Sequence record: PZ019085.1
Direction: 5' to 3' (one strand)
DNA length: 64,000 nt
DNA from: a phage
In this document: one piece after another, positions 3,104 to 25,630 of the stretch
Layout of the letters: the number at the start of each line of letters is the position of its first letter
Numbering within the stretch: position 1 is the first letter of the stretch
Position numbers and translations under genes: made by a program
Notes under the pieces: generated by a model
Database searches by the model: none
Seen by the model: only the letters and a program-made list of their open reading frames with translations
Told to the model about the DNA's origin: nothing

Positions 3104-4552
3104 TTAAGCTGTAGGAAGTTCAACCCATGCACCATCTTTGCGAACATAGAATTTACCATCTGAAGGAGCATCTTCAATATATCCAGCGTCCTTAAGAGTT
3201 TGGATTTCAGCTTCTGCAGCGGCCAAATCAGTTTCAAGAGTAGCAATTCTAGAAGTTAAACTATTAATTGTCGTATCATGACTTTTAACTGTAGGCAATA
3301 TACCACGTTCTTCAACAGTCGAACCGTTTGGGTTAGTGCCATTTATAAGAGTATTTAATGTGTTTACAGAACCCTTAATTCCTGTGGTATTAGTCCCAAC
3401 ATCAGTTTGAATGTTCTGAATGTCATTACTCATCCCACTGATAGTTCCTTCAAGCTCTCGAGTACGATAAAGCAAAGAGCCGTCTGGTTCCGGTTTCCCA
3501 CCTGAAGCGTCAACACCGACTACGTTATTTAACCATGACACATTAAAACGCAATCCTGACGAAGAATCAGAGCCGACAACAGTGTTCAATGCTCCGATAG
3601 CATCAGTATTGAGTTTAATACGTCCTTGGATTGTAGTAGGCAAATCATCAGCGCCAATGGCAGTTTCTACCGTAGTCAAACGAGGTTTAATACCACCTGA
3701 TTGATTGAGCTCAAGATTAATGTCGTTTATTGCTGAACTATTCGCATTAGTTTTAGTAATAATAGAAGTCGTATTAGGATACCCAATAGACTGTTTAATG
3801 CCATCCAAGTCAGCATTTTGACGCGACAAAGTTAAATCAATACCGGAAAGACGACTAAACACTGGAGTAGTGAAAGAAGTGCGAGGTCCCATTTCTTCGC
3901 GCAAGTGTTCGATTTCAATAGTTAAAGAGCCGACGTCAGAATCGGCAAATTTAGTTTCTAAATCAGTTAATCGAACACCATGGTCAACAATTACGGAGCT
4001 ATTGGTCATAATACGGCGTTTCATACCAGTGCTTTCATTTCCTGGAGTAGGAACCCCATTAATATCTTGACCGGTATATTGTCCTAATTCATTTTTAATC
4101 CAAAGCAGGTCGTTACGAACCGTTCTATAAACTGAATCTGTTTCCTGATTATAAACACCAATATCATCAGTATTCGCATCAATATGTTCATTCAAATCAT
4201 TCAATTCACTAGCATGGGTTTGAACTGTGACTTTAATGACATCGATATCTTGGGTGTTCCGGCCTATCTGTGCAAGAGCATCAACATCCCCAGAAACATC
4301 TAAAATACCTTGAATAGCTTTGATATCTTCATTGGCCGTATTCAAAGAAGATGCTATAGTTTTAATATTAGCATCTAACGCTTCTACGTTACGTTGAACT
4401 TCAACAATAGGACGGTTCATTACACCTTCAGAACCGTATTTTGTGTCAGCACCTGTTATTTCTTCATCGTTTTTAATCCATTCAATACGACTCTGACCCG
4501 CGTCTGGCGGGCCGTCAACATATGGTAAATCTACCAGAGTTATATCAGTCAT
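3104..4552 (-). CDS. wac: fibritin (whisker/neck fibre)
   Basis: 482-aa ORF; N-terminus [25 protein letters not shown] and C-terminal foldon GYIEDAPSDGKFYVRKDGAWVEL match T4 fibritin. Confidence 0.9.
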   Translation of the reverse strand: MTDITLVDLPYVDGPPDAGQSRIEWIKNDEEITGADTKYGSEGVMNRPIVEVQRNVEALDANIKTIASSLNTANEDIKAIQGILDVSGDVDALAQIGRNTQDIDVIKVTVQTHASELNDLNEHIDANTDDIGVYNQETDSVYRTVRNDLLWIKNELGQYTGQDINGVPTPGNESTGMKRRIMTNSSVIVDHGVRLTDLETKFADSDVGSLTIEIEHLREEMGPRTSFTTPVFSRLSGIDLTLSRQNADLDGIKQSIGYPNTTSIITKTNANSSAINDINLELNQSGGIKPRLTTVETAIGADDLPTTIQGRIKLNTDAIGALNTVVGSDSSSGLRFNVSWLNNVVGVDASGGKPEPDGSLLYRTRELEGTISGMSNDIQNIQTDVGTNTTGIKGSVNTLNTLINGTNPNGSTVEERGILPTVKSHDTTINSLTSRIATLETDLAAAEAEIQTLKDAGYIEDAPSDGKFYVRKDGAWVELPTA

Positions 4553-24109: not shown

Positions 24110-24184
24110 GGCCCTGTAGCTCAATGGGAGAGCTGTCAGCTCATAACTGATAGGTAGCTGGATCGAAACCAGCCAGGGTCACCA
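24110..24184 (+). tRNA. tRNA with CAU anticodon (Met or Ile2)
   Basis: hand-folded cloverleaf: acceptor GGCCCTG/CAGGGTC, D-arm GCTC-AATGGGA-GAGC, anticodon stem GTCAG/CTGAT with loop CTCATAA, T-arm GCTGG-ATCGAAA-CCAGC, encoded CCA. Confidence 0.75.
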
Positions 24185-24187
24185 ATC

Positions 24188-24264
<77 letters not shown>

Positions 24265-24282: not shown

Positions 24283-24627
24283 ATGAAAGGCAATGTTTAT
24301 CTGGTAGTTCATGATTTAACGTTTTATTTTAACGAACGTGAAACAGTTATTTCCGATAGGTTAATTAATTCGCTGTATCAGCATGCCGATTACATCTATG
24401 TTCAAAATGAATTTGGACATTGGAAGTTTCTTAAAAACCGTTCCGGGTTAACTAGTTTTGAATACTTTGACCGTAAAGACCTTTTAAACGAAATCCCATT
24501 GCAACATCGGTTCCAGAAACGCGAATCACTATACTATTGTCGTCATATACCAAATGCTGAATGTGCTAATGAAGCGATTAATCTATGGCGTCGGCGTCGA
24601 GAGCAAATTGATAATATGCCAAAATAA
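24283..24627 (+). CDS. hypothetical protein
   Basis: 114 aa from ATG 24283 (SD GAGGAAA), chosen because the longer ORF start lies inside tRNA-Arg. Confidence 0.55.
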   Translation: MKGNVYLVVHDLTFYFNERETVISDRLINSLYQHADYIYVQNEFGHWKFLKNRSGLTSFEYFDRKDLLNEIPLQHRFQKRESLYYCRHIPNAECANEAINLWRRRREQIDNMPK

Positions 24628-24931
24628 GAAGCCGGGTCGCTACCGGCAAGTCGTCGGACTGATGTTCCCTGAGTAAGGACTGGTCTTAATAAATCTTTAT
24701 GATTTGTTAATATCCCCTTACATCACAGCAGAAACGGCGCACAGAATTATCGATTCGAGGAAATATCTTTGCCGTAAGCCGAGTAGCGTTTTTGACGGAA
24801 CGTTCGGATATGGTCGAGATATGGCCTTTTAAAAATATTGAGTAGCGTCAACTGCTTAATAACCGGGTTCGAATCCCGGCGTTTCGTACAAACACTTGCC
24901 TTAGTAGGTGGAAACCCCGACAAGGTATATA
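24628..24931 (+). ncRNA. candidate structured non-coding RNA region
   Basis: about 300 nt with no ORF of 60 aa or more on either strand, downstream of the tRNAs; contains a tRNA T-arm-like CCGGG-TTCGAAT-CCCGG and a GCCGG hairpin; T4 encodes small stable RNAs next to its tRNA cluster. Confidence 0.3.
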
Positions 24932-24959
24932 GCCCCTTCCGAAAGGTTGGGGCTTTTTT
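24932..24959 (+). terminator. rho-independent terminator
   Basis: GCCCCTTCC-GAAA-GGTTGGGGC hairpin (two internal T:T mismatches) followed by TTTTTT. Confidence 0.65.
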
Positions 24960-24960
24960 G

Positions 24961-24968
24961 TATAAATA
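24961..24968 (+). promoter_or_regulatory. T4-type late promoter (TATAAATA)
   Basis: exact TATAAATA 35 nt upstream of the ATG at 25004, directly after the terminator. Confidence 0.6.
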
Positions 24969-25003
24969 TAGTAAACAATAAACCTACTTTCTAAGGACCA
25001 TCA

Positions 25004-25630
25004 ATGTATACTTTTAATGAATTTTTAGCCGAAACGGAAGTAATCACCGAAGCCGGTGTACGTATGACAAAAGAGAAATGGCAAGCTGCTTACGATGCTA
25101 TTTCTGGTACAAAAACTAGTACAGAGTTTTTCAAAAACGTTCAAGCCATGTATGGTATCGACACTTCCAGCCAAAAAGAATATTACAGAGCTTCTAAAGC
25201 ATTCAAAGATATTGTTAGTGGCGGTGTTTCTGCTAAATCGGGTTCGCCTAAAGTAAAACCTGCTCCTACCGTTCCTAAACCTGCGACCCCTAAAGCAATA
25301 GCAAAACCTGAGCCTAAGCCGGAAGTAAAAGCAACTCCTAAAGCTCCTGCTCTTAAGTTTGATACTTCTAGCCTGGAAAAAAAATATAAACAACTATCTT
25401 CGCTTGTTCGTGATATTGAATCCGATACATCTTCACTCGTTCGTGAATTCAACAGTCTTCGTAATGGCCAACATATCAACAACCTTGATACCCCAGACCT
25501 TTATCGTCTTTATTTGACTATCGAAGGTTTGAAGTATACTCAACCACTTCACGATGCGATTAAAGAAAAACTTCGTCAGGCAGGTCGTTTGGCTGCTGAC
25601 GCTGCTCAGTATGCAAAAACCCGTAAATAA
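25004..25630 (+). CDS. capsid-targeting-sequence protein with Lys/Pro-rich linker (candidate internal/injected protein)
   Basis: 208 aa; N-terminus MYTFNEFLAETE resembles the T4 CTS; central KPAPTVPKPATPKAIAKPEPKPEVKATPKAP linker; late promoter directly upstream. Confidence 0.6.
   Translation: MYTFNEFLAETEVITEAGVRMTKEKWQAAYDAISGTKTSTEFFKNVQAMYGIDTSSQKEYYRASKAFKDIVSGGVSAKSGSPKVKPAPTVPKPATPKAIAKPEPKPEVKATPKAPALKFDTSSLEKKYKQLSSLVRDIESDTSSLVREFNSLRNGQHINNLDTPDLYRLYLTIEGLKYTQPLHDAIKEKLRQAGRLAADAAQYAKTRK

Follow-up and report, generated by a model that had tools for sequence, protein, structure and literature searches.

What do phages of the T4 type encode beside their transfer RNA (tRNA) genes, in a stretch that offers no sizable open reading frame (ORF)? 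We addressed this question for positions 24628-24931 of a phage sequence (record PZ019085.1), analyzed as a window of 64,000 nucleotides (nt), by which we mean the whole stretch of DNA at its full length. A preliminary description made from the letters alone had seen in this ORF-free stretch a candidate small stable RNA, either the counterpart of the two that T4 encodes next to its tRNA cluster or a degenerate tRNA. By homology, the region encodes the orthologues of both T4 RNAs, species 1 (gene rnaC, product RNA C) and species 2 (rnaD, RNA D), which are already known and are ordinary in phages of this type. Two conserved, structured, phage-specific RNA genes lie here inside a tRNA transcription unit, one of them with a tRNA-shaped terminal module. 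For the identity and the proposed processing logic of both RNAs, taken together, we put the probability at roughly 85%.

In a DNA search, the region matched 807 phage records, the closest of which were the Mosigvirus genomes TH12, HX01, and JS09 at 99%, a similarity by which the window is that of a Mosigvirus, namely, an HX01/JS09-like phage of the T4 type. The region was colinear with tRNA-Arg, rnaD (“small, stable RNA; species 2”), and rnaC (“species 1”) of T4 (NC_000866), and its end-to-end alignment with the last two, together with the same layout in T2L, bore out the suggested kinship with the T4 stable RNAs. The rnaC gene aligned with T4 rnaC over 139 of 139 nt at 98.6% identity, and rnaD aligned with T4 rnaD over 120 nt at 85.8% identity, being homologous at both conserved ends. 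Scored with covariance models that we built for the two RNAs (R1 for rnaC and R2 for rnaD), the window copies reached 157.4 and 95.2 bits, respectively, with T4 rnaC itself at 158.9 bits under R1. The rnaD gene stops 7 nt ahead of the first base of rnaC (C1), a spacing equal to that in T4, and rnaC lies in the tRNA gene region, on the same strand as the tRNAs and upstream of the operon terminator. Species 1 reportedly measured 140 nt when the RNA was sequenced in 1975. The T2L record (AJ880101), in which an ORF, rnaD, and rnaC follow one another in the order found here, annotates an rnaC of 140 nt, which begins at C1, the opening base of the acceptor-like stem, and ends with the A of UACA; its rnaD is marked putative, predicted from end homology. 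We transferred the RNA ends from both annotations: the T4 ends place rnaD at 24624-24743 and rnaC at 24750-24888, and the T2L ends place rnaC at 24751-24890. The first RNA starts about 4 nt before position 24628, where the preliminary description had begun, and overlaps the stop codon of a 114-amino-acid (aa) ORF.

In T4 itself, RNAC was detected by northern blotting as a late-accumulating RNA and RNAD was classed as a late RNA in a 2022 omics study (PMC9697503); the published RNAC oligonucleotide, the template of the northern probe, is identical to positions 24750-24807 of the window. A T4 transcript of about 1.75 kb spans the tRNA cluster and terminates past the species I gene (PMC2330249, 2008). 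A blastn search of 5,426 Escherichia coli genomes (word size 11) returned no similar sequence.

Homologues of rnaC were collected by blastn in Kanagawavirus, Tegunavirus, Karamvirus, Mosugukvirus, Moonvirus, and Marfavirus, with more from IMG/VR contigs, and model R1 recovered full-length rnaC in 27 distinct sequences or loci belonging to at least eight genera. RNAalifold on six of these sequences returned a four-way junction that equals the single-sequence minimum free energy fold of the window copy (-50.1 kcal/mol, z = -4.4). Its elements are listed in Table 1. The T-arm-like motif CCGGG-TTCGAAT-CCCGG pointed out in the preliminary description is present within this fold and is unique in the window even when three mismatches are allowed (0.02 expected by chance). 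In the 27-sequence alignment, which was fitted to R1 and is biased toward the structure, 91.7% of the cells were paired, against 36 to 45% in slid-partner controls, and changes on both sides were seen in 33 of the 47 pairs; none of 500 column shuffles reached the observed values. An independent MAFFT/RNAalifold alignment of six sequences also showed compensatory changes, in 23 of 45 pairs.

These changes were spread over the whole molecule. The long arm (helices 2 to 4) changed on both sides in 20 of its 25 pairs, and hairpin P5 covaried in 8 of its 10 pairs around a near-invariant CGUCAA loop. The T-stem was paired in every sequence (100%), with two covarying pairs and a middle pair that is G-C, U-A, or A-U; the pair closing the T-arm, equivalent to G53-C61 of tRNAs, was invariant. 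At position 3-70 of the acceptor-like stem, 8 sequences have A-U and 18 have G-C. At the 3′ end, the tail differs by genus, being UACA here and UUCA or UCCA elsewhere (the last in PM2 and Marfavirus), with an invariant CA. In this modeled fold, RNA C is a tRNA mimic, in which the acceptor-like stem is stacked on the T-arm and leads into a U discriminator and an NCA tail, and in which a long helix and P5 replace the D and anticodon arms.

The window copy of rnaD folds (-39.3 kcal/mol, z = -3.9) into a 5′ hairpin and a long, irregular helix whose tip is variable; this helix joins AAGUCGUCG...GUUCCCUG in the 5′ core to UCACAGC...CGGCGCAC in the 3′ core. The 5′ hairpin, P1, is the GCCGG hairpin already noticed at the 5′ end of the region; it has a 5-bp stem and a 7-nt loop, and all five pairs are changed on both sides in other genera. 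Model R2 found rnaD in 20 distinct sequences, in which 93.5% of the cells were paired, compared with 33 to 50% in the slid controls, and double changes were found in 11 of 18 pairs; helices 2 to 4 were 91 to 100% paired, with six covarying pairs. The motif AAGUCGUC...UCCCUG...CGGCGC(A) recurs in Karamvirus, Moonvirus, Kanagawavirus-like contigs, Marfavirus, and the Pectobacterium phage PM2. The combination of invariant stems, an unpaired CCC, and an exchangeable tip points to sequence-specific recognition of the core. The comparison with related phages proposed in the preliminary description thus turned up compensatory changes in both RNAs across genera, and such substitutions, shared among several genera of T4-type enterobacterial phages, indicate that the helices of both RNAs are maintained.

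Two further observations concern rnaD. Phage PM2 (locus L007) carries two rnaD-like copies within its tRNA cluster, at 309-391 and 533-657, scoring 37 and 73 bits with R2, and the weaker copy has a GCCCAAAUGGAUG-type 5′ part as in Kanagawavirus and Marfavirus. A kissing interaction of the P1 loop (GUCGCUA) with two GAGUAGCG repeats of rnaC was rejected, since Karamvirus and Moonvirus have unrelated hairpins in place of P1 with the rnaC motif unchanged, so that the two do not covary.

Table 1. Positions of the RNA genes, their structural elements, and the flanking features in the window
Feature	Position	Strand	Basis
tRNA-Met(CAU)	24110-24184	+	ARAGORN, Rfam
tRNA-Arg(UCU)	24188-24264	+	ARAGORN, Rfam
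rnaD (T4 species 2 RNA) orthologue, 120 nt	24624-24743	+	T4 alignment, R2 model
rnaD, hairpin P1, GCCGG-GUCGCUA-CCGGC	24631-24647	+	Predicted fold, covariation
rnaD, invariant 5′ core AAGUCGUCGGACUGAUGUUCCCUG, pairing with the 3′ core	24648-24671	+	Near-invariant in 20 distinct sequences
rnaD, hypervariable apical region	24672-24722	+	At least three unrelated versions among close relatives
rnaD, invariant 3′ core UCACAGCAGAAACGGCGCAC	24723-24742	+	Alignment, covariation
rnaC (T4 species 1 RNA) orthologue, 140 nt	24751-24890	+	T4 alignment, R1 model, T2L ends
rnaC, acceptor-like stem, 7 bp, 5′ strand CGAUUCG	24751-24757 with 24880-24886	+	Covariation
rnaC, long arm, P2 (AGG/CCU) + P3 + P4, at the D-arm position of tRNAs	24758-24827	+	Covariation
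rnaC, A/U-rich linker UUUAAAAA, single-stranded	24828-24835	+	Conserved, unpaired in every model
rnaC, hairpin P5, 10 bp, 6-nt loop CGUCAA	24836-24861	+	Covariation, loop conservation
rnaC, T-arm CCGGG-UUCGAAU-CCCGG, one nt past P5	24863-24879	+	Motif scan, covariation
rnaC, acceptor 3′ strand CGUUUCG, discriminator U (24887), and ACA (24888-24890) at the CCA site of tRNAs	24880-24890	+	Alignment
Trailer hairpin between rnaC and the terminator	24897-24927	+	Predicted fold
Intrinsic terminator of the tRNA/stable-RNA transcription unit	24931-24959	+	Predicted fold; AGCCCC..GGGGCU, then U6

Both RNAs reach at least Karamvirus, Kanagawavirus, Moonvirus, Tegunavirus, Mosugukvirus, and Marfavirus, and Dhakavirus has rnaD only. 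Pattern scans of IMG/VR returned mostly T4-type contigs of about 100 to 177 kb, plus shorter fragments, and the matches to the models among them were homologues of rnaC or rnaD. The placement of the genes in these relatives is informative. In KaAlpha, ZX13, and UFV01 (Karamvirus) and KM16 (Moonvirus), rnaC lies 5 to 7 nt past tRNA-Trp and 6 to 7 nt before tRNA-Gly; in Entb_45 (Kanagawavirus) and Klebsiella phage EI (Marfavirus), it lies 6 to 7 nt past tRNA-Met, and in TG1 (Tegunavirus), 9 nt before tRNA-Trp. Since the spacers between the real tRNAs of those clusters measure 4 to 7 nt, RNA C occupies a tRNA slot. In KM16, rnaD takes up precisely the space between tRNA-Asn and tRNA-Asp, and in Karamvirus, Moonvirus, Kanagawavirus-like contigs, Marfavirus, and PM2, it is usually apart from rnaC, elsewhere in the tRNA cluster. 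The window has two tRNA genes (Met and Arg) against eight in T4, and both stable RNA genes are nonetheless retained.

RNase P and the CCA-adding enzyme recognize the acceptor/T-arm minihelix. We propose that both RNAs would be transcribed within the polycistronic tRNA precursor and released from it by the tRNA-processing machinery of the host. RNase P would cut at C1 of RNA C, and the NCA tail would arise by 3′ trimming with or without CCA repair, an RNA C ending in ...CGUUUCGUACA having the templated end and one ending in ...CGUUUCGUCCA having been trimmed and completed by CCA addition. RNA D would be bounded by the cuts that free its neighbors. The tRNA-like module would thereby serve as a built-in processing and stability signal that gives RNA C defined ends. 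The tRNA-slot placement and the 140-nt ends (C1 and UACA) lend support to such a release by RNase P and the tRNA 3′-end machinery, and the two products are most likely trans-acting RNAs excised by host tRNA-processing enzymes.

If the RNAs do act in trans, their invariant unpaired blocks could perhaps be the working parts. In RNA C, such blocks are the CGUCAA loop, the A-rich linker, and GAGGA; RNA D has AAGUCGUCG, UUCCCUG, and CGGCGCA. Tentatively, the blocks would most likely bind a host or phage protein of tRNA or translation metabolism, or one of a host-specific defense, and action by long antisense pairing is unlikely. In a 2025 evolution experiment, one convergent single-nucleotide polymorphism (SNP), located in rnaD, arose in every line of a T4-like phage during its adaptation to the semi-permissive E. 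coli ECOR34 (PMC12685909). This convergent mutation and the variable gene positions within the clusters favor a trans role with a host-dependent benefit over a purely cis one, and the mutation by itself hints at a role of RNA D in host range. A more specific proposal, to which we give a low but real chance, is that the two form an anti-defense or tRNA-factor decoy pair. RNA C might then be a tRNA-mimic effector that titrates or misdirects a host factor, such as a tRNA-directed defense nuclease or a processing or modifying enzyme, and RNA D might be a host-range determinant that neutralizes, or is sensed by, a strain-specific host system. If true, a pair of phage-encoded noncoding RNAs directed against host defense would be hidden in tRNA clusters. 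On the function of the two stable RNAs of T4, the literature searched, up to 2025 (PMC12685909 included), yielded nothing beyond statements that it is unknown.

Several points weigh against this account of a tRNA mimic and its partner released as trans-acting RNAs. The acceptor-like stem contains two central U.U mismatches in 24 of the 27 rnaC sequences, which become U-A/C-G in Yersinia TG1 and U-A/U-A in Pectobacterium PM2. In Kanagawavirus (L004/L020), the T-loop is UGCAUGC, not UUCGAAU, with the remainder of rnaC conserved; strict tRNA mimicry is accordingly not universal, and a canonical T-loop seems not to be required in every lineage. In Escherichia phage dhabil (Dhakavirus; L003, 1501-1700), rnaC is precisely absent and rnaD abuts the trailer hairpin and terminator, which means that the two RNAs can be lost independently. 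The transferred ends differ by 1 to 2 nt between their sources (139 nt in the T4 RefSeq record and 140 nt in that of T2L), and RNase P cleavage, CCA addition, and the binding partner are elements that we infer. Moreover, T4 survives deletion of its entire tRNA region when grown on laboratory strains, and any function would then be conditional.

The positions of rnaC and rnaD in the middle of the clusters and separate from each other in Karamvirus, Moonvirus, Kanagawavirus, and Marfavirus, rather than at the 3′ terminus, make it improbable that both are purely cis-acting elements of the tRNA operon, i.e., processing spacers, protection against 3′ exonucleases, or terminator context, with no function as free RNAs. 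The invariance of loops and linkers across genera while the stems covary, which is typical of a recognized surface and not of a spacer, argues in the same direction, as does the accumulation of discrete stable RNAs in T4 (PMC9697503). On the other hand, such elements would fit the cotranscription of both RNAs with the tRNAs, their location at the 3′ end of the operon before the terminator in T4, T2, and the window, the viability of T4 mutants deleted for the tRNA region, and the dispensability of rnaC in Dhakavirus.

Similarly doubtful are base-pairing small RNAs of the Hfq type that would act antisense on phage or host mRNAs via the A/U-rich linker or the loops. Although rnaC has a conserved single-stranded A/U-rich stretch, a conserved trailer hairpin, terminator, and U-tail lie downstream, and “small regulatory RNAs” is the term used in the T4 omics paper (PMC9697503), the mature RNAs stop before the terminator and are thus without the usual Hfq 3′ module. 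In addition, the conserved unpaired blocks are short (6 to 9 nt), and no trans-acting regulatory RNA of T4 was characterized according to a 2010 review (PMC3014915).

A tRNA gene in degeneration or decay is a very unlikely reading of RNA C, and so is a functional tRNA of unusual type, for instance one of class II whose variable arm is long. The preliminary description had been unable to fold a full cloverleaf around the T-arm, in agreement with ARAGORN and Rfam, for which the only tRNAs are the Met and Arg genes upstream: ARAGORN called no tRNA or transfer-messenger RNA (tmRNA) in 24265-64000, and at gathering thresholds, these two tRNAs were the sole matches of Rfam 15 in the whole window. 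The covariance-model scan (tRNA and Rfam) that had been proposed therefore recognized neither RNA. A permissive Rfam 15 scan of 24550-25020 (E up to 10) gave chance-level matches alone, the best subthreshold match from the tRNA clan being tRNA-Sec at 24795-24887, with 16.6 bits (gathering score, 47; E = 1.5). Model R1 weakly matches genuine tRNAs. In the consensus structure of rnaC, covariation-supported stems make up an acceptor/T-arm minihelix that carries a discriminator and a CCA-type end, but the structure has no D-arm and no 7-nt anticodon loop and is not a complete cloverleaf. The canonical T-arm, the acceptor-like stem, and the discriminator with NCA speak for such a reading, as do the tRNA-Sec alignment and an ARAGORN call in a relative described below, and insofar as rnaC retains such a stem and a T-arm, the idea of a degenerate tRNA holds. 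However, the element is not decaying, as its non-tRNA helices are under strong compensatory selection across genera.

The ARAGORN call concerns locus L025 (Enterobacter phage vB_EclM-UFV01), in which the 3′ two-thirds of the rnaC homologue, at 1136-1230, were called as a 95-nt tRNA-Met(CAU). In this lineage, the A-rich linker is CUUCAUAAG, and an internal segment is able to pair with the 3′ strand, so automatic annotation of rnaC genes of this type may yield a spurious extra tRNA. The internal acceptor pairing taken from this call and from the tRNA-Sec alignment, ACGGAACG (24795-24802) with CGUUUCGU, was tried and rejected as the conserved fold: it is pairable in 85.6% of the cells but shows no covariation (492 of 500 shuffles performed equally well), and 15 of the 27 sequences have lost its central pair. 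Its 3′ column covaries instead with the true 5′ end (A-U in 8 and G-C in 18), and the internal pairing may be transient in T4-type sequences. Separately, a 114-nt tRNA-like element was seen on the minus strand at 12398-12511 of L035 (IMG/VR contig 3300033066_001150, 98 kb); its 7-bp acceptor stem is perfect, and it also has a T-arm and a long extra arm. It received no ARAGORN tRNA call, the contig is not T4-like in appearance, and the element may be another tRNA-mimic RNA.

The last alternative, that the region encodes small proteins such as the 47-aa coding sequence (CDS) D299_gp042 of HX01, is hardly credible and the small ORFs were rejected as genes, for although ORFs of 58 aa (minus strand) and of 47 and 42 aa (plus strand) exist and HX01 and many other records annotate a “hypothetical protein,” they have TTG starts throughout, most relatives have TTG or GTG starts, starts and lengths shift among close relatives, one ORF crosses the terminator, the cross-genus substitutions fall in base-paired couples with no codon pattern, and the curated T4 and T2L records annotate RNAs here.

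The surroundings of the two genes are as follows. The claim that no ORF of 60 aa or more occupies 24628-24931 was confirmed on either strand, the longest having 58 aa. The statement that the region comes after the tRNAs holds for the cluster as a whole but not for the immediate neighborhood, since the 114-aa ORF (24283-24627, plus strand) sits between tRNA-Arg and the RNAs. This ORF belongs to PHROG 3355, a family with no assigned function, and is 69% identical to T2_136, found at the same place in the T2 genome; the matching ORF is annotated trna.2 in the T2L record, where it overlaps rnaD by 4 nt. T4 has no ORF at this site, and its rnaD begins 1 nt past tRNA-Arg. The ORFs neighboring the RNA region fall in PHROG families of unassigned function.

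Downstream of rnaC, the strong terminator described at the end of the region was recovered in the folds; two internal U.U mismatches hide it from a simple scan, and in phage dhabil, one of its pairs has undergone a compensatory change from C-G to G-C. The trailer hairpin and the terminator are both conserved in T4, L012, and dhabil, and the hairpin is nearly invariant, even in dhabil, which has no rnaC. This hairpin might serve as a processing site or belong to a third small RNA that ends at the terminator. Right after the terminator, a T4 late-promoter consensus, TATAAATA, is found at 24961-24968, ahead of a 208-aa ORF (25004-25630) that belongs to PHROG 2280, again a family with no assigned function. 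In many Tequatrovirus genomes, an ORF of about 110 aa driven by a late promoter is inserted past the rnaC terminator, a second copy of which lies beyond the ORF (e.g., L048, Yersinia phage fPS-65, 601-1205).

Both rnaC and rnaD are to be expected in any close relative of T4, T2, or RB69. Most of the approximately 800 GenBank records with the region nevertheless carry “hypothetical protein” or leave it blank. In the RefSeq record of HX01 (L002, NC_018855), a 47-aa “hypothetical protein” (locus positions 3239-3382) spans the 3′ end of rnaC and the terminator, and a 24-aa CDS (2542-2616) is antisense to the tRNA region. These two CDSs look like annotation artifacts, as do many others alike in other records. 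The present analysis supplies covariation-supported secondary structures for two families with no threshold-reaching family in Rfam 15. What the stable RNAs of T4 do is a question that has stood since the 1970s, and mutagenesis now has targets in a defined structure and a small set of invariant unpaired positions.

Compared with T4, the two genes here have the same order, strand, and position between the tRNA genes and the terminator. Differences are seen in rnaD and on its upstream side: the 114-aa ORF splits tRNA-Arg from rnaD here, as in T2, and is absent in T4; the apical part of rnaD differs in sequence; and rnaD ends in ...CACAG here and in ...CACCA in T4. With tRNAs, rnaC shares a 7-bp acceptor stem made of its 5′ and 3′ ends and stacked on a 5-bp T-stem with a UUCGAAU loop, the equivalent of the G53-C61 closing pair, a single discriminator base with an NCA/CCA tail, and a placement in tRNA gene arrays with tRNA-like spacers. 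Unlike tRNAs, it is 140 nt long, has two U.U mismatches in the acceptor, and is without a D-arm or an anticodon stem-loop.

The tRNA-like domain of tmRNA offers another parallel in architecture, as its termini also form an acceptor/T-arm minihelix and a big unrelated domain takes the site of the anticodon arm. However, rnaC is without the G3.U70 pair (PM2 excepted; position 3-70 is A-U or G-C in 26 of the 27 sequences), the ACCA end, the pseudoknots, and the tag reading frame of tmRNA, and the only Rfam signal of the tmRNA families in 24550-25020 was one 17-nt fragment (10.1 bits, E = 7.6). RNA C may also be likened to the tRNA-like RNAs of MHV68, mascRNA, and the tRNA-like domain of the bacterial Y-RNA YrlA, in which a tRNA-shaped module may recruit processing enzymes and so yield a stable noncoding RNA. 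The likeness is one of shape, with no similarity in sequence or model to those modules, the sole Rfam trace being a 17-nt mascRNA fragment (E = 5.3). YrlA carries its tRNA-like part internally and uses its termini for the Ro-binding stem, whereas in rnaC, it is the termini themselves that form the acceptor stem.

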